From Thermoproteota archaeon (GTDB taxonomy: Archaea > Korarchaeota > Korarchaeia > Korarchaeales > Korarchaeaceae): DNA of 64,000 nt. The notes under the pieces were generated by a model. It worked only from the letters and a program-made list of their open reading frames with translations, was not told the origin of the DNA and searched no databases. This document shows, in pieces, positions 448 through 52,016 of the stretch; position 1 is the stretch's first letter, and the number at the start of each line of letters is the position of its first letter. The stretch lies in contig JALSOH010000009.1 of assembly GCA_026986575.1 (NCBI GenBank), positions 1 to 64,000 on the forward strand, in the 5' to 3' direction. The translations under genes and the position numbers were made by a program.

Positions 448-999
448 ATGCCCGAGAGGAACAGGAAACTGATCGAGGCGGCGGGAATAGACATCCAGAA
501 GCTTCTTGATCTACTGGTGAGGGCTGCGGCCGCGGAGTTCACCACCTATTATTACTACACGATTCTGAGAAACCATGCAACTGGTGTAGAGGGAGAATCG
601 ATAAAGGAGATAGTGGAGGACGCTAGAATAGAGGACAGGAACCACTTCGAGGCCCTCGTGCCCAGAATTTACGAGCTGGGTGGAGATCTCCCCAAGGACA
701 TAAGAGAGCTCGCGGACAAGGCGGCCTGCATGGACGCCTACCTGCCGGGGGAACCCACAGTAGAGAACATACTCAAGGTCCTGCTGGAGGCGGAGAGATG
801 CGCCGTGTCGATCTACACCCAGATATGTGAGTACACCCATGGCAAGGATCCGAGGACCTACGACCTCGCTCTAGCGATCCTACACGAGGAGATAGAGCAC
901 GAGGCGTGGTTCGAGGAGCTGTTAACCCGCAAACCAAGCGGCCACTTCAGGAGGAACAGGCCTGGGGAAAGCCCTTACGTATCAAAGTTCCTGAGGTGA
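448..999 (+). CDS. dpsL: DPS-like ferritin-superfamily protein (DpsL)
   Basis: [34 protein letters not shown] and [10 protein letters not shown] diiron motifs; C-terminal [17 protein letters not shown] typical of archaeal DpsL. Confidence 0.93.
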
Positions 1000-1156
1000 A
1001 GTGAGTGACCTCTCTTTCATCTTACCCCCCTACCTTACCCTTTTTGAATCGCTGCGATCCGGTCATATCTCTCACTTCCCTCGGATGACTCGCGGGTAGG
1101 ACCATCTTGCTCGATTAGTGGGAAATCTTAAATTCCCATCAACCCTAGATGGGACG

Positions 1157-1402
1157 ATGAATTTCGTGATCGAGGTGGATGAGAGGGGGAGGATCACGAT
1201 CCCCAAGAGGGTGAGGAACTCCCTCAGGATAGGTCGGAAGGTCAGGATGAGGGTTGAGGGCGACAGAATAATAATAGAGCCAATCGAGGATCCTCTAGAT
1301 GAGTTATCCGACCTCGTGAAGGGATCTAAGCTCAGCTCCAACAGGGCAGAGGAGATAGGGAGAGTAGCCTCGGGACAACTTCTCGAGGAGGCTCGACGAT
1401 GA
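1157..1402 (+). CDS. AbrB/MazE/SpoVT-family antitoxin
   Basis: VDERGRITIPKRVR motif; overlaps the PIN gene by ATGA. ATG 1157 preferred over GTG 1118, which lies inside the operator. Confidence 0.88.
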   Translation: MNFVIEVDERGRITIPKRVRNSLRIGRKVRMRVEGDRIIIEPIEDPLDELSDLVKGSKLSSNRAEEIGRVASGQLLEEARR

Positions 1403-1806
1403 AATGGATGGTGGAAACCGATATAATCTTCTCAGCGATATACAGAGAGGATCCCAACCACAATCTCTCTAGGGAGGTCCTCAAGGGACTTAGGAGGGTA
1501 GCCTTATCCCCGTACTCCCTTATGGAACTGGATCTCCTCATAAGATCAGGTAATCTGGAAGTGGAGAGTTACGAAGAGTTCTGGAGTTCCTTCGGTGAGT
1601 TCCTGAGTCAGTACGGAGTTAAGCTGATACCCTCCAAGCCATCGCACTTCTTGGAGGCTGAAGTGGTGAGGAAGACTCATGGCCTGTCCTATTTAGACAG
1701 CCTCCATGCAGCTGCAGCGATCCACGAGGGTGCGACGCTGATCAGCTACGATGAGTCTTACTCCAGAGTCGGCGGGCTCAGGCACATCCATCCAAAGGAA
1801 CTGTAG
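1399..1806 (+). CDS. PIN-domain (VapC) toxin
   Basis: MVETDIIFS...ELDL...SYLDSLHAAAA...LISYD acidic PIN pattern. Confidence 0.9.
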   Translation: MKWMVETDIIFSAIYREDPNHNLSREVLKGLRRVALSPYSLMELDLLIRSGNLEVESYEEFWSSFGEFLSQYGVKLIPSKPSHFLEAEVVRKTHGLSYLDSLHAAAAIHEGATLISYDESYSRVGGLRHIHPKEL

Positions 1807-2167: not shown

Positions 2168-3754
2168 TCACTCCTTCTCTGGCAGGAAGAGACCCAACAC
2201 ATTCCTCAGACCGAACGTCTTTATCACATTCAGAAGGAAGGCTAGGAAACCAAGGGCCATCAGGGCGCCGAAGAACCACGCCCCGGCCATGTAGGGCAAG
2301 TACCTGTCGGTGAAGTAGAGGGTCCTCCTGAGCATTCCCTCCCTCCAAGCTAGCCCCATGGAGAGGGACATCCCAATACCGCCGATGACCCACAGCCAGA
2401 AGTGAATATTCCCCAGCTTCTCGTCCAGCTCCACGTTTGCCAGCATAGGGGTGAGCGCGTAAATGGCAGCGAACAGAATGCTGCTCAGCCCTGTCAGAAG
2501 GGTCTCGTGGAAGTGGAAGCCAGGGACCCACTGGGTGTTATGTATTATCACATTAAGCCCGTAGTTGGCCTGTATGAGGCCGGCCATTCCTCCTAACAGG
2601 AAGCCCACGATCCCTCCAAGCATGAACTTAATCGGCAGCGTTAACTTGAGGGGTCTGGCAAGCCAGAGGGTCATGAGCGCAGTGAAGAAGGTAAGGCCCA
2701 TGGTGAAACCCTCTCCCCAAGTTATGAACTGGCCACTGAAGAGCCTCAGGAACCAGGGTTGAGGCCTGTCTGAGAGCAGGTGGTGGCTCCATACACCCAT
2801 CGAGACTATCAGGTCGGCCAGTATGATGTACCTGACGACCTCCTCCGCGTAAAGCTTCCTGTTGGCCAGCAGGGGAGCGAGGAGATAGAGGGTTCCCGCG
2901 GTCCAGATGAGCACATCTCCATCGGCTATCATGTCGAGGCCCCACCAGTAGATGTTCTTGTAGATCAGCGGGTCTATCACGAGGGGGTTGATGGGACCCA
3001 CGAGCATCCTGTAGAGCATGAAGCCCGCTATTAACGCTCCCGCCCCCGCCAGCACCACGGCATTTATCACGGCATCTATTGAGCCTCTGAAGACGGCGAC
3101 CACGAAGACGGGCAGCTTTTCGGGCTCTCCCTTACCGTCGGTTAGCATAGGCCTCCCTATCCCCAGTCCGAGCTTCACTCTATTCACGAATCCGGTGATC
3201 AGCTTTAGAAAGCCGCCCAGACCGAAGGAAGCGAGCAGCATGGCAGCGACAGCCGATCTCGTGCTGAGGCCGGGCTTGGATACCCTGAGAATGGTGGCGA
3301 ATATGTTGAAGAGGAAGAGGAGTACCGAGATCTCCGTCAAGATCAATCCTAGAGAGAAGGTTAGGGCACCTGGTTCCGGGAAGTGCACGGGCAGGGGCCA
3401 GTATATGGTGTACAGGGAGCCGTAGTAGAACAGGAATCCTGAGAACCAAATAATGAGGACGCCAGCTGCTTGCAACCAGAGGTTGATGGATGCCAGCCTG
3501 ATGCTGAAGAGCTCTCTCTTGAGGAGAGTTGGTACTAGGAAGAAGAATGCACCCATCACCGCCATGTAGGCCCATCCGTAGGTGCCCACCAAAGGATGAA
3601 CGGTCATCACCGCGTAGTAGTGATGCTCGTCGATGAAAGGTATGTTCAGTAGCCTAGTACGCATCATCATACCCTCTATACCCGCGAGAGCGAGGAAGAG
3701 GGAAGCTACCACCACGTACCTGAGTGTCAGCTTCTCTAAGGTGAGCTTACTCAT
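2168..3754 (-). CDS. Heme-copper oxidase superfamily subunit I, B-family-derived, atypical active site (gNOR-like putative NO reductase)
   Basis: About 12 TM helices with His ligands TVHP, WSHH and GFHFH, plus HNTQW and MLRR. Helix VI reads YWWGLDMIADGD instead of WW.GHP.VY. Start set at ATG 3754. Confidence 0.88.
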   Translation of the reverse strand: MSKLTLEKLTLRYVVVASLFLALAGIEGMMMRTRLLNIPFIDEHHYYAVMTVHPLVGTYGWAYMAVMGAFFFLVPTLLKRELFSIRLASINLWLQAAGVLIIWFSGFLFYYGSLYTIYWPLPVHFPEPGALTFSLGLILTEISVLLFLFNIFATILRVSKPGLSTRSAVAAMLLASFGLGGFLKLITGFVNRVKLGLGIGRPMLTDGKGEPEKLPVFVVAVFRGSIDAVINAVVLAGAGALIAGFMLYRMLVGPINPLVIDPLIYKNIYWWGLDMIADGDVLIWTAGTLYLLAPLLANRKLYAEEVVRYIILADLIVSMGVWSHHLLSDRPQPWFLRLFSGQFITWGEGFTMGLTFFTALMTLWLARPLKLTLPIKFMLGGIVGFLLGGMAGLIQANYGLNVIIHNTQWVPGFHFHETLLTGLSSILFAAIYALTPMLANVELDEKLGNIHFWLWVIGGIGMSLSMGLAWREGMLRRTLYFTDRYLPYMAGAWFFGALMALGFLAFLLNVIKTFGLRNVLGLFLPEKE

Positions 3755-3755
3755 G

Positions 3756-4229
3756 CTAACCCCCTCTCGAGACCTGAATGGCCCCCTCAACGAACATGTA
3801 GGGATGCTGCGGGCCAGAGTACTCGGTGGACCTCACGGTGTAGTAGCCGGGCTTATCGAAGATCCATATAATGGAGTTCTCGTACTTCGGGACCACTTGC
3901 ATCTGGAATACCATCCTGCCCTCGGGATCGAAGACCCCGAAGCCGTAGGTGAGGTCCTCGCTCGTCGCCACGAACTTCACCGGCACTCCTGCCTCTATTG
4001 AGATGGTCCCGGCCTTGAGCGGCTTCAACCCATTTCCCTCCACCAGGAAGAACTTGTGGCCTTTTATGTGGACTCTGACGATTTGCTTGGGCTGCGGGGG
4101 ATTGAACAGGTCCCAGTGGACCCACGGGACGAGAGGCGAGAGGGTCACGACATTGAAAACTATGGCCACTAGCGCTATTATGCCCAGCCATATCTTCTCC
4201 TCCCTCTCCATCTTGACCACTTCAATCAC
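3756..4229 (-). CDS. Heme-copper oxidase subunit II homolog (cupredoxin fold) lacking CuA ligands
   Basis: One N-terminal TM helix. DLTYGF and STEYSGPQHPYM replace DV.HGF and C.EYCG..H..M. Confidence 0.88.
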   Translation of the reverse strand: MIEVVKMEREEKIWLGIIALVAIVFNVVTLSPLVPWVHWDLFNPPQPKQIVRVHIKGHKFFLVEGNGLKPLKAGTISIEAGVPVKFVATSEDLTYGFGVFDPEGRMVFQMQVVPKYENSIIWIFDKPGYYTVRSTEYSGPQHPYMFVEGAIQVSRGG

Positions 4230-4339
4230 CTCTTAGGTTTGGTCAGCTTTCTGGCATACCACGCCATGAACAGCATGACACCGGCGGCGTAGATCAGGTA
4301 AAACAGGTCGATGGCGTCCACAACGCTGAGCTGCAGCAT
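4226..4339 (-). CDS. 37-aa single-TM peptide; candidate subunit IIa-like accessory subunit
   Basis: Not in the ORF track. MLQLSVVDAIDLFYLIYAAGVMLFMAWYARKLTKPKR with AGGTG RBS; its TGA overlaps the GTG start of subunit II (GTGA coupling). Confidence 0.75.
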   Translation of the reverse strand: MLQLSVVDAIDLFYLIYAAGVMLFMAWYARKLTKPKR

Positions 4340-4386
4340 AGCGACACCTGATAACTATTGTCTTTACGTGTCAAATTAATATAGTG

Positions 4387-4462
4387 CGAACATGTTCGGT
4401 AAAAAATTTTGAAAAACGCTAGGGTTATATTGTATCTGGAAGATTATGACATGAGTCATAAT
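4387..4462. promoter_or_regulatory. Two inverted repeats in the divergent promoter: CGAACATGTTCG (4387-4398) and ATTATGAC-atga-GTCATAAT (4443-4462)
   Basis: Both are directly visible between the oxidase operon and the HTH-10 regulator. Confidence 0.55.
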
Positions 4463-5042
4463 GATGGTATGCTCCTCAGACCTTCCTGAGGGCTGCTGGC
4501 TCGGGGACCTAACTAGGGAACATCCCAAGGTGAGGGCTAAGGTGCTCTCCCTCTTCACGCGGCCTGGCGCTTGCACCTTCTCGCTGGTGCTGCTGACTCC
4601 TAGGGATGAGGAGGTCCTCTCCTACGTCAAGTCCCATAGAGCGGTTAAGGAGGTGAGGGACGAGGGCTCTTCAGTCATGAGGGTGAAGCATTACTGTCCT
4701 CTAGCTGAGATATTCGAGGCGACCGAACCGCCTCATCTCCCCTTCTCGGTGAGGATGGGAAGGGCCGAGTGGCATCACGCTCGAGAGTTCAAAGACCTCT
4801 GGGAGGCACTGAGGAGGAAAGGCCTCAAGGTTTCGGTCAGGAGGGAGAGGGGAAGGAAGCTGACCAAGAGGCAGAGGGAGATCCTGCTGAGGGCAATAGA
4901 GGAAGGATACTACGACTTCCCGAGGAGGGTGACCCTCTCGGAACTGGCGGAGAGGCTGGGCATCTCGAAGTCGTACCTTTCTGAGACGCTGATGAAGGTG
5001 GAGAGCAAGCTTCTACCCGAAGCCTTGCTGCATCACACCTGA
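4461..5042 (+). CDS. HTH-10 (bacterio-opsin activator type) transcriptional regulator
   Basis: C-terminal LTKRQREILLRAIEEGYYDFPRRVTLSELAERLGISKSYLSETL; N-terminal domain contains several Cys/His. Confidence 0.9.
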   Translation: MMVCSSDLPEGCWLGDLTREHPKVRAKVLSLFTRPGACTFSLVLLTPRDEEVLSYVKSHRAVKEVRDEGSSVMRVKHYCPLAEIFEATEPPHLPFSVRMGRAEWHHAREFKDLWEALRRKGLKVSVRRERGRKLTKRQREILLRAIEEGYYDFPRRVTLSELAERLGISKSYLSETLMKVESKLLPEALLHHT

Positions 5043-5046
5043 ACGG

Positions 5047-5487
5047 CTAATCTCCCGTTTTGGATCTCAGATATTCCCTGACGTACCCCGAAAATAGTTC
5101 TAAATCATCCAATTTCGTTTTTAAGAACTCCAAAAGTTTGTTCAAGTCGAGCTCACTGTACTGACGGGCTAGGATGTTCCTGAAACCAGGTATCTGAGCC
5201 AATCGGGTGGAGAAGTCTCTAGGAACTACTCCCATTTCACCCAACCTTAAGAAGGCCTCTCTGTAGGTTTCAGGCATTTCAACTCCTTCCTCAGAGATTG
5301 TCATCTCGCTTATGTCTATCGCAGCCTCTATAGCTATCTGGAAGTTTCTCTCGATGGCGCTTCTTAGCTCATAGTTACTCTGGAGGTCCTCTAAGGTGAT
5401 GTTCCGCCTGCTCCTCAAGTAATTCAGTGAGATCTCGAGATATCTTAGCTTCTCAGACACCTTCTCCCTGAAGAACATGTCTCTCAC
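5047..5487 (-). CDS. HepT-like (DUF86) HEPN RNase toxin; RX4H motif altered
   Basis: AIERNFQIAIEAAID...PETYREAF...GFRNILARQY (His replaced by Arg). Confidence 0.88.
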   Translation of the reverse strand: MRDMFFREKVSEKLRYLEISLNYLRSRRNITLEDLQSNYELRSAIERNFQIAIEAAIDISEMTISEEGVEMPETYREAFLRLGEMGVVPRDFSTRLAQIPGFRNILARQYSELDLNKLLEFLKTKLDDLELFSGYVREYLRSKTGD

Positions 5488-5867
5488 CTAGAGAGGATAA
5501 ATTCGGCCCTCCTACTGTCGTAATACCCCCTGTCCAAGTAGGTCCTCAGGGTGCGATAGATGAACTCCTTCCTCACCCTCTCGTCCCTAGAGAAGAGGAG
5601 CCTGCCCTTCAGCACCTCAAATGCCAGTCTGTAACCGGCGGTATTGAGCAGAACGACATCCACTTTGACATCCCTGAAGCTCAGGCGGCTGGCTATGTCC
5701 AAGAAGGTGTCCCACATGGCGTCTTGGGGTAGGGATGGATCGAGGTAGACAGCAACATCGACGTCACTCAGCTTCCCCGCCTCACCCCTAGCGTGGGACC
5801 CAAACAGGTAGGCGAAGATCACCTCGTCGCAATCCTTTAAGACCTTGACTATTTTCTCTACGAGCAT
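5484..5867 (-). CDS. MntA-type minimal nucleotidyltransferase antitoxin
   Basis: YLFGSHARGEAGKLSDVDVAV...VDVV; coupled to HepT. Confidence 0.9.
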   Translation of the reverse strand: MLVEKIVKVLKDCDEVIFAYLFGSHARGEAGKLSDVDVAVYLDPSLPQDAMWDTFLDIASRLSFRDVKVDVVLLNTAGYRLAFEVLKGRLLFSRDERVRKEFIYRTLRTYLDRGYYDSRRAEFILSR

Positions 5868-7039: not shown

Positions 7040-7321
7040 TCACCTCCCTTCCCTCATCTTATCCTTAACCTTGAGGAAGAACTCTTCATCCTCGAGGAGC
7101 ATACTCATGAGCTCGTCCATCTTGTCCAGCTTTATGAGCACTATACCTGCGCCGTCCATCCTCCTGAGGACTAGAAGCTGATCTCCTTCTTTTATGTTTA
7201 GATCTGCTCTCAGATCGGCGGGAATGGATATCTGACCCTTGGATGTGACAGTCACCACTCCGTAGACGATCCTCTTCTTTCCCTCGGTGCACACACCCTT
7301 ACTCGAATTTTCCTTACTCAT
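7040..7321 (-). CDS. AbrB/SpoVT-family DNA-binding regulator
   Basis: YGVVTVTSKGQISIPADLRADLNIKEGD. The true start may be a GTG near 7293. Confidence 0.85.
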   Translation of the reverse strand: MSKENSSKGVCTEGKKRIVYGVVTVTSKGQISIPADLRADLNIKEGDQLLVLRRMDGAGIVLIKLDKMDELMSMLLEDEEFFLKVKDKMREGR

Positions 7322-7483: not shown

Positions 7484-7915
7484 GTGCTCTCGGGGATTAA
7501 TTTGGTATCCCGTTTCGGGGACTGGATGAGACAGGCGGAAAGAAACTTGAAATCGGCTACTGCAAATTATGACGCGGAACTTTACGAGGAGGCGTGCTAT
7601 GAGGCCCATCAAGCAGCGGAAAAGGCCATGAAGGGACTTCTCAACCTTCTGAATCGGGAAAGGAGGGGCCACTCAATCTCATTCCTTGCACTGGAGAGCG
7701 GGCTAAAGGTCCCTGAAGAAGTCCTCAAGTGCTTGAAGTACCTAGACAAGCACTATATCCCCACTAGATATCCTGATGTCTACGATGAGGGAGCGCCATG
7801 CGATTATTATACGAGAGAGGACGCGGATAAATGTCTAGAATGCGCAAAGAAAGTGATGGAGTGGGTAATTGAGAATGCCCAAAGAATTAGGGGATCTCCT
7901 AGCTCGTTATCGTAG
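7484..7915 (+). CDS. HEPN-domain protein
   Basis: YEEACYEAHQAAEKAMKG...GHSI...YIPTRYPD. Confidence 0.9.
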   Translation: MLSGINLVSRFGDWMRQAERNLKSATANYDAELYEEACYEAHQAAEKAMKGLLNLLNRERRGHSISFLALESGLKVPEEVLKCLKYLDKHYIPTRYPDVYDEGAPCDYYTREDADKCLECAKKVMEWVIENAQRIRGSPSSLS

Positions 7916-8261
7916 GTTCAAGCCCAAGCTAGTTGTATTGTTTGGATCTAGGGCTAGAGGAGACTATACCGATAGCAGCGATTACGACATCTTGGTCGTT
8001 TCTGATGACCTTCCGAGGGATCCTAGAGAAGCTTTTGACTTACTCTATGACTTGGATTATCCAGATGTCTCTCCGATAGGTATGAACACAGCTTCCTTCC
8101 TCAGGAAGCTTGAGGAGGGCAGCACATTCATTCTAGAGATACTGGAAGATGGCAAAGTCCTTTTAGCCGATGAAGATTTTCTGAGAGAGGTGATGACAAA
8201 GTTCAAAGAGATCAGAGGGAGGTTTAAGCGAGAGGGGAAAACTTGGATCCTTGTTAGATGA
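7869..8261 (+). CDS. Minimal nucleotidyltransferase (MNT)
   Basis: LFGSRARGDYTDSSDYDILVVS. Confidence 0.9.
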   Translation: MRMPKELGDLLARYRRFKPKLVVLFGSRARGDYTDSSDYDILVVSDDLPRDPREAFDLLYDLDYPDVSPIGMNTASFLRKLEEGSTFILEILEDGKVLLADEDFLREVMTKFKEIRGRFKREGKTWILVR

Positions 8262-23070: not shown

Positions 23071-23814
23071 CTACCTCTCATAAATCGGAGCATCCAAGAA
23101 TCTCCCATACAGCCTCAGGATTTCCTCCTCGCCCTCGCTCTCGTCACCGTAGATGAGGACCCCCTCGTCAACTATGGTCTTAGCTAGGGCTAGGTCCACC
23201 TCTAAGTTTAGCACAACCAGATCGACCCGAGCCTTAAGTAGGTCCTCAAGCTCCACTTGGAGTCTCCCTACGTCTAGCATGCTTCTGGGTTTCTCTTCCA
23301 GCTTAACGGCCAGATCCACGTCATTACCGCATCCCTCCCTAGCTAGTGAGCCGAAGACGAACGCTAGCCTTATGCCCAGCTCCCTAGCTCTCTCCCTTAT
23401 CCTCTCTCTAACACTGTCCAAGCATGGATCTTCAGCTAACCTGCTCAGACGCTCTATCAACTCCGGGACCTTCTCAGCGAGTTCCTCAAAGGCCCTCGTC
23501 TCCATCTCCCTGTCTATGTCACCGTACATGTGAACTAGGATATTTCTGAACCCCGCTACTCCCTCTAGGAACTCCCTTAAGCTAGGATCTACGACATCCG
23601 ACAGCCATCTTGCGAGGTCCTTGTACGTATCCGGTTTTCTCCCCTGCCTCTTTGAAGCGAGGACTGCTGCGAAGTCCAAAATTACTTGGGATATCAGCTG
23701 AGCGAGCCGCTCGACCGCATAAACACTCTCTGTTCCCGACCGGTAATTGCTCAGAGCCTCTACGAACTCTCTATAGTAATACTCCAACTTCTCCAACAAT
23801 TTCTTGAGCTTCAT
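23071..23814 (-). CDS. HepT(DUF86)-MNT fusion protein
   Basis: N-terminal VERLAQ...PDTY...GFRNILVHMY; C-terminal VFGSLAREGCGNDVDLAV...VDLV. Confidence 0.88.
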   Translation of the reverse strand: MKLKKLLEKLEYYYREFVEALSNYRSGTESVYAVERLAQLISQVILDFAAVLASKRQGRKPDTYKDLARWLSDVVDPSLREFLEGVAGFRNILVHMYGDIDREMETRAFEELAEKVPELIERLSRLAEDPCLDSVRERIRERARELGIRLAFVFGSLAREGCGNDVDLAVKLEEKPRSMLDVGRLQVELEDLLKARVDLVVLNLEVDLALAKTIVDEGVLIYGDESEGEEEILRLYGRFLDAPIYER

Positions 23815-23958
23815 TATGATATCTCAAGGGGCTGATCTAAAAGACCTTACCGTGTACAGGGATGCAATTCACCTTCTAGGGTTCGCATCCCAATTCCTCA
23901 GGGCCTATTCGTACAGAGATCTATTAAAGGACTCCCACTCGACAGTAATCACGCAAAC

Positions 23959-24369
23959 TCACCCCCTTTCACGCTTTACTATGTTCTTTATAACCTCATC
24001 TAGGTCATAGTACTCCAGATCGTTCACGAGAGCCGTAGCTGCGTGAATTGAATCGAAGAAGGAGAGTTGGGAGTACTTAACCCTCAGCTCAGCAGCACCC
24101 GATATTATCTCGAATGTCAGTTCAGGGAAGGAGGGCCTTGTATACCTCCTTATTAAGGATTCCATGGCAGCGAGAGCCCGACTAATTCCCTCCTCAGGCA
24201 ATCCCTTAGACTTAAGTATCAAGGAAAGCTCAACGAGCGAGGCAGGAGAGATAAAGATCTTCACTTCACCTTCCCTCGCCTGCTTCAGCAGATCGACGGC
24301 CCACCCACGATTCCTGTCCCTCGGATTCAAAGAGACCAAGAACCCCGTTTCTAGTAGGACTTTTGTCAA
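23959..24369 (-). CDS. PIN-domain (VapC) toxin
   Basis: LLETGFL...ELSL...SFFDSIHAATA. Confidence 0.88.
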   Translation of the reverse strand: MTKVLLETGFLVSLNPRDRNRGWAVDLLKQAREGEVKIFISPASLVELSLILKSKGLPEEGISRALAAMESLIRRYTRPSFPELTFEIISGAAELRVKYSQLSFFDSIHAATALVNDLEYYDLDEVIKNIVKRERG

Positions 24370-24608
24370 GCGGACACCTCTTCCAAGGCCTGCTGCTCAG
24401 CTACCCTCCTGAGCTCCCTAGAGAACGTGAGATCACCCAACAGCTCCTCTAATACCTTCTCCGGATCTTCCAGCTTTTTTATGAGGATTCCACTCTTCTC
24501 TAATGTTATAACTACCTTGTCACCTTCCCTCAAGCCAAGCTTTTCCCTCACCTTCTTCGGGAGCACTATCCTCCCCTTACTGTCTACCACCGCTTGCATC
24601 GTATTCAT
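24366..24608 (-). CDS. AbrB/MazE-family antitoxin
   Basis: VVDSKGRIVLPKKVREKLGLREGD; overlaps the PIN start. Confidence 0.9.
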   Translation of the reverse strand: MNTMQAVVDSKGRIVLPKKVREKLGLREGDKVVITLEKSGILIKKLEDPEKVLEELLGDLTFSRELRRVAEQQALEEVSA

Positions 24609-25346
24609 TAGTGGGTCCCACCTATAAATAATTTCCCACCTCACCTCAGGTGTTCAGCACAGATGTCCTAGAATGTCGAAAGAAACACCGAAAGAATCAC
24701 CCTTTAACCGCTGAGTATTCTTCCACATGAGCTTGACCCTCCCGTAGTAGATCCTGATAAAACTTCCCAAGAAAAAGTAAAATGGAACTCTACTATCCTC
24801 AGTAAGGAATAGAATTAGCTGGTGGTGAGGAACTCTCGGCTCCCATAGAGGAATTCATTGAGGTCGTCGATTCCTTTACCTAAGCTGGATCTCAACTGAG
24901 TCGATATTTACGGAAGAATGCCTTCTATTGCTTCTACGGGATCATCCTCGAGTTCAGGTATCTTCATCGGAGACAGCTGAGATCCAGAGCGAGATCGTCT
25001 CCCCACCTCCCGCTTAGTGATCCTCCGGTGTGACCGAACCTCTTCATGATCGACTCTTTGAACCATCTTCTCTGGTCTGGCTGTCCATGCTCACTCAGAT
25101 CGTTGCTGGAATTAGGCTCCCGTTATTTTTCACTTATCGCCACTTAGCCATACGCAGCAATAATTCCCGGATATCGACCTTCTCCAACCCAGAGTCGGGC
25201 GACCCGAAACATTGGGACCCGACCTATAGAGAGGAACGATCTTCAGATCCAAGCCTCCCCTTTAATCCACTTAGCTTCCGGCCTCATGGAAAGGTGAGAA
25301 ACAGGCCCTGCTCTCTTCCAGCCTGTTATAATTGCGAGAGGGATCC

Positions 25347-29759: not shown

Positions 29760-30200
29760 TCAATCTCCATACTCCCTAATGTGCTTAAGGGAGGGTTCCT
29801 TCCCTACCAGTTGCCGAACGACCCTCTCATCCGCTGTATATAGGATGGCCCCAAGCTTGCGGGCCAGCACCATGTAGTAGGCGTCGTACACAGTAAGACC
29901 CCTCTCTAAGGAATAATCCAGCGCCTTTCTCACGAGTTCCTCGTTCTCCTCTATCATCACCGGGGCGGACTCCACGAGGAGATCGAACACCTCCCTCATC
30001 TCCCTTTCTCCAATGATCCCCCTGACTCGGTACTTCCTCAACACATTCGCGAATTCAAGAACGGCGTATCGGGGTATGACTACCTCAACCCTCCCGTATA
30101 GATGGTCCTCCAGAAGGGCCTTTGCCTCCTCGTGGTAATCCTCCGGAATGAACCATTTCACCAAGATGTTGGAGTCGACAACGATTCTCTTTCCCTTCAT
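29760..30200 (-). CDS. PIN-domain (VapC) toxin
   Basis: VVDSNILVKWF...LEFANVL...TVYDAYY...LYTAD. Confidence 0.92.
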   Translation of the reverse strand: MKGKRIVVDSNILVKWFIPEDYHEEAKALLEDHLYGRVEVVIPRYAVLEFANVLRKYRVRGIIGEREMREVFDLLVESAPVMIEENEELVRKALDYSLERGLTVYDAYYMVLARKLGAILYTADERVVRQLVGKEPSLKHIREYGD

Positions 30201-30427
30201 CTGTCCTCCCTATCTTCTCTCACGAGTTCAACGGATAGATTACCCTCTACCCTCCCGATGGACCTCTCCAATTCCCTTAATCTCCTCATTATTCTCTCTG
30301 CCCTCTTTCTCCTGACTAAATCCTCTAGAAATTTCCTTATTTCCTCTGAATAGTTGATCTCCAACTTTTCCAGCTCCTCCTTAAGCTTCTTCGGGACCCT
30401 TACTCCTATCACTGCGCTCGTGTTCAC
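30197..30427 (-). CDS. RHH/CopG-type VapB antitoxin
   Basis: VIGVRVPKKLKEELEKLEINYSEEIRKFLE...SVELVREDRE. Confidence 0.88.
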   Translation of the reverse strand: MNTSAVIGVRVPKKLKEELEKLEINYSEEIRKFLEDLVRRKRAERIMRRLRELERSIGRVEGNLSVELVREDREDR

Positions 30428-47599: not shown

Positions 47600-48490
47600 T
47601 CACTCGGCGTACCTGGCCATCATGTCAATAAGAATGTCCTTCACTTTACTGTAGTCCTTGGTCTTCGATATGCTGTTGATCACATCCATTAAAAGGGCCC
47701 TGACTTTGCTCTCTGGGGACCTCTTTGGTATCAAGGCAGCTGCAAGCAGCCCCTTCTTGTAGGCTATCACGATCTTCCTGTCCTTCATTTCTATGGACTG
47801 GGGGATGTCCCTCAAGGCATCCTCCGTGTAGTTCTTAGTGAGGGATAGAAACGCGCTCAGAGTGAGGCTCCTAGATGAAGATGTCGACACCAGAGGGTTG
47901 CCATGCTCGTCGAGGATCACGAGCTCCTCGATCCTCATTGGATGAATGACTTCTCCACCGGTGAGCTGCTCGTAGAGCCAAGCGAACGCCTCAAACAATC
48001 CAAAGCCCGTAAGGGCGCTGGTCCATACCACCTGCCAAGGTATCCCTTCCAGCTTGGTCAGGTCGAAGTAGTCTATCACCTCCATGACCGTGGCAGCATC
48101 CTCCAGATCCGCCTTGTTGGCCAGCACTAGAAGGGGGATGTTCCTCTTCATCATCGAGATAACGTTCCAGAGCTCCGCCTTTGCCTCATCAAATCTCTCT
48201 CTATCGGCGGAGTCGATGACGAATATTATGGCATCTGCCTTCTCTGCGTACTCAGCCCAGATCCTTCGGAGGGACCTCTGTCCTCCAAGATCCCATACAT
48301 TAAATTCGAGGTTCCTGACTCTGAGCCTCTCGTAGTTCGCTCCCACCGTCGGTATCGTCGATCCAGGCTCTCCCTTCCTTAAGTAGTTCAGTAGGGTGGT
48401 CTTACCGGCCCCATCAAGTCCCAGAATGACCAGAGTTGCTGACCTCCTGAAGAGGCCCAGCAGATTTGAGATGAGTCTTCCGAAGGGCAT
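47600..48490 (-). CDS. Arf-family small GTPase fused to a C-terminal longin/roadblock-like domain
   Basis: GLDGAGKTT, TIPTVG, WDLGGQRSLRRIW, ANKAD, SALTG; N-terminal amphipathic helix; about 120-aa C-terminal domain IEELVILDEHGNPLVS...LSAFLSL...QSIEM.KIVI.LLAAAL. Confidence 0.92.
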   Translation of the reverse strand: MPFGRLISNLLGLFRRSATLVILGLDGAGKTTLLNYLRKGEPGSTIPTVGANYERLRVRNLEFNVWDLGGQRSLRRIWAEYAEKADAIIFVIDSADRERFDEAKAELWNVISMMKRNIPLLVLANKADLEDAATVMEVIDYFDLTKLEGIPWQVVWTSALTGFGLFEAFAWLYEQLTGGEVIHPMRIEELVILDEHGNPLVSTSSSRSLTLSAFLSLTKNYTEDALRDIPQSIEMKDRKIVIAYKKGLLAAALIPKRSPESKVRALLMDVINSISKTKDYSKVKDILIDMMARYAE

Positions 48491-49747: not shown

Positions 49748-51436
49748 ATGGAACCGAAGACCTTGGAGGAGATACTCAATCACCTGAGGAATTCTGGCCT
49801 TCCCCCCGAGAGGATAAATAAGTTCGTTAACCTGTTGAGGAAGGACGGAGTTCTAGATGTGATTGTGAGGGTCCTCAGCAGGTGCCGATCCTTGGAGGAT
49901 GCGCTTAAGGAGATCTCCAGCCTAGGAGGAATGGCCGATGTCTCTAAGGAGATCTCCCACAAGGTCAGTATAGTCAGGAACTTCGTCCTCACGTCCCTAG
50001 TGAATCTTTCCGTTGACAAGTCCTACATGAGGAGTTTCTTCAGGAAGAAGTCTAAGGCTAAGAAGCTAAGAGAGATACTTGTATCTACCGAGGAGGAGCT
50101 TAAGGAGACAGAGGCTCGTCTCTTAGAAGCCGTGAGGGGTGTACTCCTCAAGACCCTAGAATCCCTTGAGATCAGGGATGGAACACTCAAGGCTGAGATA
50201 GAAGGAATAAAAAGCCTTCAGGATCTAGAGATAGCCAAGAAAATTTGGAATAAGATTAAGCCCGAGTTAGAAAGGGCTGTGGATGGGACCAAGTCTCAAG
50301 GCCAAGTGAGAAGGGGCGAGGAGGCCGTGCTGATAACAGACGATTTACTCAACGAGATACTCGAAGCCTTGGCGAGGATGGAAGACAACAGGAAGGAGCT
50401 AGAGCTGAGAGGGTGCACCTTCCTCCTCCTCTCTGAGGTATCATCCCTCAAGGATCAGATCCTAAGCTGGCTCTCTTCTAACTTCGGGAAGGAGTCTTAC
50501 GGGGTAACTAGTCTCCTTAAGATAATAAGAAGGCTATCCGACGACTCGGAAACCCTCCTCTCTACTTCCATTAGACTGCTGAACTTGAGGTCCGAGCTTG
50601 AGGCGGTCAAGAGGGAGGTCTTGGATAAGATCAGCCGGAAGATGCCCCATCTCACGGAGGCCATATCGATGATAGGACTGAGCTCACCGAGGCTCCCCTG
50701 CATCATCTCCATGCCCGAGGAGATAGCCAGCCTGAGGTACGAGGTTTCAAGGCTTGGAGACACGGTGAATGCCCTCAAAGAGCTCAGCAGCGAGCTGGAT
50801 CACTTCACTGACGAGATCAAGTTCCAGCCGGAGAAGCTGTCCTACAGAACAGAGTCCGACTTCCTGAAGAGCCTAATAGAGACTCTCAGGGCCTTCAGAC
50901 TCTCTAGAGGACTCCCAAGCACGGCTTACTCTCTACCAGGTCTAATGGAGGAGCTGCTCTCCCTCTATCCGAGATGGAGGGAGTACGTGAAAGAACAACT
51001 GGAGGAAAAGGGCTACCTTGAGATAGGGGAACTCTCATTCATACCGGAGATGTGGAGAGAGTGGTTCCTTTCTAACTTGGAGGAGGAGGGGCTTACCACA
51101 ATCTCCGATGGGAAGATACTCCCCAGAGCTCCCAGTTCCGAACTAAGAAAGCTCAGAATGAAATTCGAGTTCCTGAAGGACACCTACGAGGACATGAAAC
51201 CCATATTCCAGAAGGCGGGGATAAGCGAGCAATACTTAAACTCCTTGGAGAGGAAGCTAGCCCTCCTGATGGATCCCAACTATGGGGGTGAAGATAGAGA
51301 GAAGCTGCAAAGGGAGGTTGAGGAAGGCATAGAAAGGGCCCTGAACGTTCTCAAGGGTGGTGGGGTGCCCGATGAGAAAGATGAGACTGGTGGTGATGGG
51401 CCCGCACCAAGCTGGCAAGTCCACCTTGATTCATAG
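49748..51436 (+). CDS. Long coiled-coil hypothetical protein (possible winged-helix segment near the C-terminus)
   Basis: 562 aa, helical; segment QLEEKGYLEIGELSF...LSNLEEEGLTTISDGKI. Confidence 0.8.
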   Translation: MEPKTLEEILNHLRNSGLPPERINKFVNLLRKDGVLDVIVRVLSRCRSLEDALKEISSLGGMADVSKEISHKVSIVRNFVLTSLVNLSVDKSYMRSFFRKKSKAKKLREILVSTEEELKETEARLLEAVRGVLLKTLESLEIRDGTLKAEIEGIKSLQDLEIAKKIWNKIKPELERAVDGTKSQGQVRRGEEAVLITDDLLNEILEALARMEDNRKELELRGCTFLLLSEVSSLKDQILSWLSSNFGKESYGVTSLLKIIRRLSDDSETLLSTSIRLLNLRSELEAVKREVLDKISRKMPHLTEAISMIGLSSPRLPCIISMPEEIASLRYEVSRLGDTVNALKELSSELDHFTDEIKFQPEKLSYRTESDFLKSLIETLRAFRLSRGLPSTAYSLPGLMEELLSLYPRWREYVKEQLEEKGYLEIGELSFIPEMWREWFLSNLEEEGLTTISDGKILPRAPSSELRKLRMKFEFLKDTYEDMKPIFQKAGISEQYLNSLERKLALLMDPNYGGEDREKLQREVEEGIERALNVLKGGGVPDEKDETGGDGPAPSWQVHLDS

Positions 51437-52016
51437 GCTCGATCCTTGGGCCGTCAGGATGGACTACTCCAAGGGCACCTTCTCAACCACCGTTGGCTTC
51501 GACTACGGCATAGTCCTCTGGGACGCTACTGAGGACAGGATATACAGGAGGGATCAGATAGATCTCGTGGACCCCTCGAACGAGATATGGAAGGTCACCA
51601 TAACCGGAACTCCGGGACAGATAGCCTTCGCCCCTGTGAGGAAGGTGCTGGCTAAGGGTAAGGATGGGGTGATGCTCGTGATCGACAGCGCACGTCCAGT
51701 TCAGATGGTCTACGCGTTGAGCCAGTATCAGGAGGCGAGGGAGTCTGCTGGTTCCGTGCCTCTCATAATACTCGCTAATAAGCAAGACCTTCCACATGCT
51801 AAGAGTGCCGAGACGATAGCCTCCCTCTTGGGCATAAGGTGCAGAGTCGTCCCGATATCCGCGCTGAAGGGGACCAATGTGGAGGAAAGCTTTCTCCAGT
51901 TTCTCAAGGAGGTAAGGAGAAGCATCCTCGCTAAGTCCATATCGGAGAGATTGGCCGAGAGAAAGGAGTCAAGGTGGATATCTTGGATGAGAAGAAAGCT
52001 AGCATCATCCGTTTGA
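51372..52016 (+). CDS. MglA/COG2229-type small GTPase
   Basis: GPHQAGKST, TTVGFDYG, TGTPGQ, ANKQD, SALKG; ATG 51372 after a GGGGTG RBS. Confidence 0.9.
   Translation: MRKMRLVVMGPHQAGKSTLIHRLDPWAVRMDYSKGTFSTTVGFDYGIVLWDATEDRIYRRDQIDLVDPSNEIWKVTITGTPGQIAFAPVRKVLAKGKDGVMLVIDSARPVQMVYALSQYQEARESAGSVPLIILANKQDLPHAKSAETIASLLGIRCRVVPISALKGTNVEESFLQFLKEVRRSILAKSISERLAERKESRWISWMRRKLASSV

Follow-up and report, generated by a model that had tools for sequence, protein, structure and literature searches.

What does a heme–copper oxidoreductase (HCO) do in an archaeon that appears unable to make heme or nitric oxide (NO), yet keeps several heme enzymes? The question is raised by an operon in the first 64,000 nucleotides of contig JALSOH010000009.1 (assembly GCA_026986575.1; Thermoproteota archaeon, Korarchaeaceae), the whole stretch of DNA analyzed here and referred to throughout as the window. 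Three open reading frames (ORFs) run head-to-tail on the minus strand, from 4339 to 2168, and encode a short membrane peptide, a cupredoxin subunit II, and an HCO subunit I. The operon almost certainly belongs to the gNOR family. Our preferred reading, to which we assign a probability of roughly 60%, is that its three-subunit product acts as an NO reductase fed by quinol, in which two His and several carboxylates form the non-heme metal site, and that the enzyme removes external NO with scavenged heme. It is a new member of a known family: gNOR itself, the Asp substitution that marks it, its CuA-less subunit, and its occurrence in Thermoproteota are already published.

Assignment to the gNOR family

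The gNOR family is defined by the replacement of an active-site His by Asp, and is the first HCO family to show it (Murali et al., 2024; PMC11214002). According to the text and datasets of that study, gNOR has a cupredoxin subunit II without CuA residues, quinol is a possible electron donor, and the cross-link Tyr is absent (Dataset S5; PMC11214002). The window operon presents the same combination: a subunit I with the HCO fold, Asp in place of His, no Tyr, and a CuA-less cupredoxin partner. It also groups with a sequence classed as gNOR by the authors of the family, a grouping that is indirect, through Bathyarchaeia JdFR-11 (GCA_002011035.1), for which Dataset S6 gives GNOR=1 and 0 for all other HCO families (PMC11214002). 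One of our related loci, L074, comes from Ca. Hecatella orcuttiae isolate JdFR-11, and its homolog is 62% identical to the window's subunit I. In a quick maximum-likelihood tree (IQ-TREE) of 78 gNOR-family sequences, confined to that family to the exclusion of other HCO families and drawn without an outgroup, the two fall, with other Thermoproteota, within one nine-row archaeal group (SH-aLRT 96). The initial annotation of this DNA, made from the sequence alone, had proposed a gNOR-like enzyme, and the Asp substitution, the CuA-less subunit II, and the grouping with JdFR-11 uphold that assignment; none of the differences from the published gNOR description speaks against it. A 2008 paper by Hemp and Gennis is reportedly cited for the family.

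The same annotation took gNOR to be described mostly from bacteria, which the published record contradicts. The family occurs among Bacteria as well as Archaea, mostly in sulfidic habitats, with counts of 156 GTDB genomes and 913 IMG metagenome matches (PMC11214002); 14 of the 28 Thermoproteota rows shown in Dataset S8 carry it, which amounts to at least 14 genomes. Among those 14 rows, nirK is present in four and nirS in none, so that ten have neither (PMC11214002). Since gNOR is on record in Thermoproteota, an archaeal gNOR, even one without a nitrite reductase, is not new. Three points may be: that the small subunit is conserved, that the replacements at the CuA positions are strictly kept, and that the family recurs in genomes without a tetrapyrrole pathway. 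The literature search, which covered PMC11214002 apart from its figures and SI Appendix, returned no statement on a conserved small subunit, on frozen CuA replacements, or on gNOR in tetrapyrrole-less genomes.

Homologs are numerous. A word-index search in which 8000 candidates were scored returned 1211 proteins with E ≤ 0.001; among the top 120 of these, which belong to Thermoproteota, Chloroflexota, and other groups, identity is never below 51% and 81–98% of the query is covered. A pattern scan of one genome per species gave at least 598 stretches, at least 595 of them confirmed, and the best 80 of the at least 595 matching species genomes supplied the 80 related loci compared here. Closer to the window's genome the distribution thins: gNOR was found in 5 of 18 sampled congeners and in none of 12 sampled more distant relatives, a patchy presence that marks it as an accessory gene in the genus. 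The gNOR matches of two of these congeners (G005:C77:1186-2769 and G007:C71:10787-12370) each contain one in-frame TGA; the gene could be broken there, or the junction between subunits II and I could have been read through. Separately, a Methylomirabilota sequence (L053) nests inside an archaeal group beside Bathyarchaeia L046 and L068; in a quick tree without an outgroup, this placement suggests transfer between domains.

Active site of subunit I

Residues of subunit I are numbered after the 540-aa version of the protein unless stated otherwise. The protein matches Pfam COX1 at E 3.8e-63 and is therefore not a chance ORF; its matches to the NCBIfam oxidase subunit I models fall far below their cut-offs. 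An AlphaFold model from an 89-row alignment (predicted local distance difference test score, pLDDT, 85.2; predicted template modeling score, pTM, 0.88) is paired by Foldseek with oxidase subunit I chains at template modeling (TM) scores of 0.75–0.78 over the whole length. The ligands of the low-spin and high-spin hemes that characterize an HCO subunit I are in place (H65, H426, and H428).

The unusual features lie in helix VI, WWGLDMIADGD (282–292), in which the initial annotation had seen Asp in the place of the CuB/FeB His and no cross-link Tyr. Comparison with solved oxidases bears this out. When residues 261–348 are aligned by phmmer with the Thermus ba3 chains 4n4y_A and 4g7r_A, the alignment runs without gaps from the WW pair, pairing D286 with the CuB His and D290 with the cross-link Tyr; H336 and H337 correspond to the two helix VII CuB His, in an HH...D motif common to both enzymes, and Y302 to another Tyr in helix VI of ba3. 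From its numbering, this last ba3 residue may be taken to be the K-channel Tyr248 listed in Dataset S1 (PMC11214002). No ba3 alignment was obtained with the helix VIII fragment as query. Alignments with A-family oxidases open a one-residue gap that lines up Gly residues and brings L285 under the His. Within a membrane helix, we prefer the ungapped B-family register; in either register, neither His nor Tyr occupies the CuB-His and cross-link-Tyr positions.

These substitutions characterize the family as a whole. Conservation was assessed in 78 sequences: 79 of the 80 related loci gave a match, and 77 ORFs of 450 aa or longer from these loci were aligned together with the window's own sequence. 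All 78 share W282, W283, G284, L285, D286, A289, D290, G291, H336, H337, E360, H417, N418, H426, and H428; H65 is kept in 77, the remaining sequence having a gap there. WSHH (334–337) and HFH are present as reported, and their His residues hold well beyond the window. The "extra acids" that the annotation had listed fare unequally: E360 of TWGEG (357–361) is invariant, but E429 of HFHE (426–429) is Glu in only 5 of the 78. D292 is Asp in 11 sequences and Asn in 67, and is not a family feature either. The invariant His of subunit I number six—the five canonical ligands and H417. In alignments with A-family oxidases, H417 falls on the His of their conserved HDT motif, a residue that we take to coordinate the metal of the Mg/Mn site. 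At position 330, which precedes H336 by six residues and is presumably the site where cbb3 oxidases carry their Tyr, there is an invariant Ser. With no spare invariant His and no suitably placed Tyr, no substitute His–Tyr pair is evident; the possibility that one is supplied from elsewhere in the protein, which the annotation had raised against its own proposal, thus finds no counterpart at the sequence level in the 78 sequences.

Subunit I would accordingly be expected to hold a low-spin heme on H65 and H428 and a high-spin heme on H426, and beside the latter a non-heme metal bound by H336, H337, D286, and D290, with E360 of helix VIII nearby. A hard-ligand, carboxylate-rich site of this kind should favor iron over copper, as does FeB of cNOR and qNOR. 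The His–Tyr cofactor is required for O2 reduction (PMC11214002); its absence would preclude four-electron reduction of O2 and still allow a two-electron reaction with NO, in which the enzyme would catalyze 2 NO + 2 e- + 2 H+ -> N2O + H2O, yielding nitrous oxide.

This bears directly on a competing explanation, that in a strict anaerobe the operon serves to scavenge O2 or peroxide at low capacity and forms part of an oxidative-stress island. The surroundings of the operon would suit such a role: a Dps-like ferritin adjoins it in the closest relatives, hemerythrin and Crp/Fnr neighbors accompany it in other loci, and neither the window nor the genome yielded any nitrogen-oxide gene. HCO enzymes, moreover, cross-react between NO and O2 (PMC11214002). 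We nevertheless consider this role unlikely: the His–Tyr cofactor is missing in 78 of 78 sequences, the genome already contains a cytochrome bd oxidase to deal with O2, and the site has been rebuilt with carboxylates and then frozen, which suggests a new and specific chemistry and not a decayed oxidase.

Subunit II

The 157-aa subunit II has no Pfam family match. SoxA and CoxB subunit II models match it weakly, and its best solved relatives are the CuA domains of Thermus ba3 (E 1.4e-4 to 1e-3). In alignment with these domains, Y95 takes the place of the first His, the two Cys correspond to S134 and S138, and H142 and M145 match their ba3 counterparts; the loss of both CuA Cys to Ser and of one His to Tyr, as originally described, is thereby corroborated. 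It is also shared throughout the sequences compared. Among 74 of them (the window and the 73 of 80 loci that gave a match), the Tyr, the two Ser, and an intervening Glu (E136) are invariant (74/74), and the His and Met are kept in 72 and 73, respectively. Near-invariant positions, 29 of the 157, cluster in the two former CuA loops (residues 92–100 and 133–145), and the R-S-T-E-Y-S-G-P loop is the best-conserved stretch of the subunit, in archaea and bacteria alike. Because near-invariance is focused on the two replaced loops, the old CuA pocket has been remodeled and then frozen, and is not decaying.

With no CuA in subunit II and no cytochrome c domain, the enzyme would most likely draw its electrons from menaquinol. 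A more far-reaching proposal, which we regard as doubtful, is that the former CuA pocket (Tyr, Ser, Glu, Ser, His, and Met) is a newly evolved functional site, for instance for quinol or a mononuclear metal. It would belong to a stand-alone, three-subunit, quinol-fed NO defense that runs on borrowed heme in heme-auxotrophic archaea free of nitrite reductase, and that uses a two-His, multi-carboxylate metal site unlike that of any assayed HCO.

The small subunit

The initial annotation had also pointed to a 37-aa transmembrane peptide, translationally coupled upstream of subunit II. The coupling is apparent in the DNA, where the TGA of the small ORF overlaps the GTG start of subunit II at 4229 (GTGA). 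A profile built from eight archaeal copies of the peptide, searched directly upstream of subunit II in the 80 loci, found a copy in 51 of them at E < 1, in 42 at E < 0.01, and in 25 at E < 1e-3; among the matching loci, seven are seed members of the profile, so that their match is built in. In four loci subunit II itself has the corresponding segment as its N-terminus (L054, Firestonebacteria; L009, Methanomethylicia; L008, Thermoprotei; and L059). The aligned peptides form one hydrophobic helix with a conserved acidic residue, a Tyr, and an F–M pair, followed by basic residues. The profile has no match in the PDB.

In a model of the three-chain complex, the peptide scored 0.92 versus 0.00 for the best of three controls, with a pLDDT of at least 84 and contacts that agree between runs to 94% or more. 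The mark applied to such scores is reached by 116 of 157 solved complexes and by 2 of 215 mismatches, counts that serve here only as a rough guide since custom alignments were used; the pass may itself reflect likeness to solved ba3 complexes. The modeled contacts involve the helices of subunit I at residues 360–413 and 460–471 (528-aa numbering), as well as subunit II. From the model and the profile matches, we read the peptide as a real and conserved third subunit. We take it to be equivalent, or at least analogous, to subunit IIa of ba3 oxidase, presumably a membrane peptide of about 34–37 aa like that of the window operon. Its part would be structural, supplying the membrane helix that longer forms of subunit II carry themselves.

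Comparison with known enzymes

The operon resembles Thermus ba3, a B-family oxidase, in its best-matching solved subunit II, in the ungapped alignment of helix VI near the WW pair, and in its three-subunit layout. But ba3 has the CuB His, a cross-linked Tyr, a full CuA site, and a cytochrome c donor, and it reduces O2; D286 and D290 in place of His and Tyr, and Y95, S134, and S138 in place of CuA ligands, set the window operon apart from B-family O2 reductases. The A-family quinol oxidases bo3 and aa3-600, which are among the best sequence and fold matches of subunit I, also pair it with a cupredoxin subunit II that lacks CuA, and they take electrons from quinol, as is predicted for the window enzyme. 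They keep the His–Tyr cofactor and CuB, however, and reduce O2; the CuA-less subunit II is common to both, and the missing His–Tyr pair places the window enzyme outside this group as well.

With cNOR and qNOR the window enzyme shares a heme and non-heme metal site without Tyr, and a carboxylate at the Tyr position—Glu in cNOR and qNOR, Asp in gNOR, as tabulated in PMC8756737. qNOR is, in addition, fed by quinol, as has been proposed for gNOR. In cNOR and qNOR, FeB is bound by three His and a Glu, and the partner is a heme c subunit or a fused N-terminal (quinol) domain (PMC11214002), whereas the window enzyme keeps two of the three His and is paired with a cupredoxin, with neither heme c subunit nor fused domain. 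It therefore belongs to neither family, and any mechanistic similarity of gNOR to cNOR and qNOR would be convergent.

A further explanation holds that the gNOR name is a misnomer and that the heme/non-heme-iron site carries out some other reaction, whose substrate might be N2O, a sulfur compound, or a different small molecule common in sulfidic vents. In the text of Murali et al., eNOR alone is assayed and no gNOR member is, and the case for NO reduction by gNOR rests on an inorganic mimic and on context (PMC11214002). The same study reports the family mainly from sulfidic habitats, and nirK and nirS are both lacking from 10 of the 14 Thermoproteota gNOR rows shown in its Dataset S8. Subunit II, too, keeps a strictly conserved, remodeled pocket. 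Yet no positive evidence singles out any other substrate, the Glu that cNOR and qNOR carry has its parallel in the acid at the Tyr position (PMC8756737), and a chemical mimic of the gNOR site has been shown to reduce NO, according to PMC11214002. On balance we judge a different substrate improbable, and retain NO reduction as the preferred reading.

Heme, NO, and quinol in the genome

The genome to which the window belongs comprises 1.91 Mb in 11 contigs and is 99.69% complete, with 2.48% contamination; the sequencing runs that contain the window DNA are labeled hydrothermal vent metagenome, and no RNA run is listed among them, which speaks neither for nor against expression. The subunit I described above is its sole heme–copper oxidase. 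Heme synthesis and nitrite reductase genes were the genomic counterparts to which the initial annotation had drawn attention, and they are present only in part: nirK and nirS have no match in this 99.69%-complete genome, and neither do ALAD (HemB) and porphobilinogen deaminase (HemC), but a heme O synthase was found (252.8 bits against a curated cut-off of 210.3). Hcp and CtaA (heme A synthase) also have no match in the genome, and there is one hemerythrin-domain protein. The congener G003 carries a heme cluster (L094, G003:C7:5000-19220) of SirC-like, HemB, HemC, CobA-HemD, and AhbA/B genes, followed by a radical SAM gene. Five of these genes have no tblastn match in the window's genome, where the two upstream flanking genes match at 76%. 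That the cluster is missing while cytochrome bd (CydA and a CydA-like partner), an Fdn cytochrome b, gNOR, and the heme O synthase are all kept suggests heme auxotrophy.

The pattern extends beyond one genome. Two of the 18 sampled congeners have ALAD, neither of them with gNOR, and ALAD is found in none of the six gNOR holders of the genus (five congeners and the window's genome); cytochrome bd occurs in 14 of the 18. Heme O synthase exceeds its curated cut-off in 17 of the 18 congeners, though only five hold gNOR. In the 14 archaeal genomes behind gNOR loci, whose completeness is not given, ALAD was matched in 5 and unmatched in 9.

Such findings invite the view that a heme auxotroph acquired the operon by transfer as a passenger without function, its product never being assembled into a holoenzyme. 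It is patchy in the genus (5 of the 18 sampled congeners and the window's genome), it is flanked by toxin–antitoxin modules, and HemB and HemC were not found in the genome. Yet the three frames are intact and the residues invariant in the family are all kept in the window copy, and the retention of other heme proteins, cytochrome bd and the Fdn cytochrome b subunit, together with heme O synthase, implies a supply of heme. The 9 of 14 archaeal gNOR genomes in which ALAD is unmatched show that the combination recurs, which also argues against a passenger; we consider this explanation very improbable, well behind any other discussed here.

If the operon does encode an active NO reductase, as we prefer, the absence of a nitrite reductase and of a tetrapyrrole pathway implies that its NO would come from neighbors or from abiotic chemistry in the sulfidic sediment of vents, and that scavenged heme would be needed, part of which could be converted by the genome's heme O synthase. 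For menaquinone, a decarboxylase scores 498.4 against a cut-off of 495.9 and adjoins a UbiA-type prenyltransferase. An MqnA-like match (23.6 bits, below its cut-off) was rejected as evidence of the futalosine pathway, the protein being an NMT1-type ABC binding protein. One enzyme that could fill the quinol pool, and a plausible quinol source for gNOR and cytochrome bd alike, is an FdnGHI-like membrane formate dehydrogenase (L092, G000:C4:599108-605225), which consists of a 1210-aa alpha subunit, a beta subunit, a cytochrome b gamma subunit, and FdhE and adjoins hypE. A nitrate reductase is not proposed: the molybdopterin enzymes at two of the three places found match formate dehydrogenases best, and not Nar or Nap.

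Proposed function and its implications

Several observations weigh against the function that we favor. How D286, D290, and E360 are arranged around the metal is predicted from alignments, and the quinol donor is argued from a single feature, the absence of CuA. The Arg of the bo3/aa3-600 quinol site is not kept, and an acid, E39, alone aligns (by eye) with the Asp of that site. Menaquinone synthesis is backed by two genes only, and no gene for the presumed heme uptake was identified. The occurrence of heme O synthase in 17 of 18 congeners, with or without gNOR, means that it is not specifically tied to this enzyme. The Pfam scan of the window finds no nitrogen-cycle gene near the operon, and the Dps-like ferritin, hemerythrin, and Crp/Fnr neighbors fit a response to O2 or peroxide as well as one to NO. 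Reduction of NO is, besides, a prediction for the gNOR family as a whole, no member of which is assayed in the text of PMC11214002. The data establish membership in the family, which ligands are substituted and how invariantly, the makeup of the subunits, and the gene content of the genome; what we infer comprises the identity of the metal, NO as the substrate, the quinol donor, the uptake of heme, and the role in detoxification.

The recurrence of gNOR in archaea without a detectable heme pathway or nitrite reductase argues for a role in defense over one in denitrification in these organisms, and for dependence on external heme. gNOR is one of several predicted NO reductases that may explain much unrecognized N2O production. 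The general picture of the family is unchanged by this operon, which offers a compact, intact, thermophile-derived source for expression and structural work. Some of what it suggests should be useful across the family: the third subunit would need to be co-expressed, the replaced CuA positions merit mutagenesis, and the metal site is carboxylate-rich.

Operon structure and gene neighborhood

The coordinates of the operon and of its two most relevant neighbors are collected in Table 1.

Table 1. Features of the gNOR operon and adjoining genes, in window coordinates
Feature	Position	Strand	Basis
Dps-like ferritin; convergent operon neighbor in close relatives	448..999	+	Pfam Ferritin 6.1e-23
Subunit I, 12-helix heme–copper oxidoreductase core; 528 aa from the likely start, ATG at 3754	2168..3754	-	ORF list, DNA reading
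Subunit II, 157 aa; one membrane helix and cupredoxin domain	3756..4229	-	ORF list
Small subunit, 37-aa single-helix membrane peptide; first operon gene	4226..4339	-	ORF list
Probable promoter region; TATA-like A/T-rich box ~35–45 nt upstream of first ATG, AGGTG a few bases before ATG	4340..4400	-	By eye
Divergent HTH_10 (Bat-like) DNA-binding protein	4461..5042	+	Pfam HTH_10 6.5e-20

The start of subunit I differs from the one listed. The ORF list has it at 2168–3790, 540 aa from a TTG; the likely true start lies one base past the TAG of subunit II, and the nearest database protein is also 528 aa long. For subunit II, an alternative start is an ATG at 4211, 18 nt downstream of the GTG and preceded by GGTGA. 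An ORF at 1778–2167 was considered as a further member of the operon and rejected: it has no Pfam family and no conserved counterpart adjoining the operon, and its sole blast match (in L002) lies ~5 kb off.

Of the loci that extend far enough, the two closest (L002, 58% identity; L003, 56%) have the HTH_10 gene in the same divergent position, and weaker relatives occur in L008 and L080; from this position, its product is a candidate regulator of the operon. A Dps-like ferritin 88% identical to that of the window directly adjoins subunit I in L001 and L002. In the window itself, a MazE/PIN pair (1118–1806) and an unconserved ORF stand between the ferritin gene and the operon, and a functional link between the two may be presumed at most. 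Toxin–antitoxin pairs, transporters, and a radical SAM protein are also encoded around the operon. Neighbors that recur among the 80 loci are hemerythrin-domain proteins (14 loci, 4 of them archaeal), Crp/Fnr regulators (12), and a UbiA-family gene (8) that is likely a heme O synthase. Hemerythrin-domain proteins and Crp/Fnr regulators are used elsewhere in NO or O2 sensing. A neighbor "family" seen in 15 loci proved to lie antisense over subunit I and was discarded as a shadow ORF.

Toxin–antitoxin-type modules of the MazE/PIN, HepT/MNT, and HEPN/MNT kinds are dense in the window (1118–1806, 5047–5867, 7040–7321, 7484–8261, 23071–24644, and 29760–30427). Farther from the operon, a 296-aa protein on the minus strand (47600–48490) matches Pfam Arf at 3.8e-53, which is strong for a small GTPase of eukaryotic type encoded in a Thermoproteota genome. 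A second small GTPase lies 3 kb off on the plus strand (51357–52016; Arf 2.8e-11, Ras 6.7e-11), among the ORFs listed without a Pfam family.

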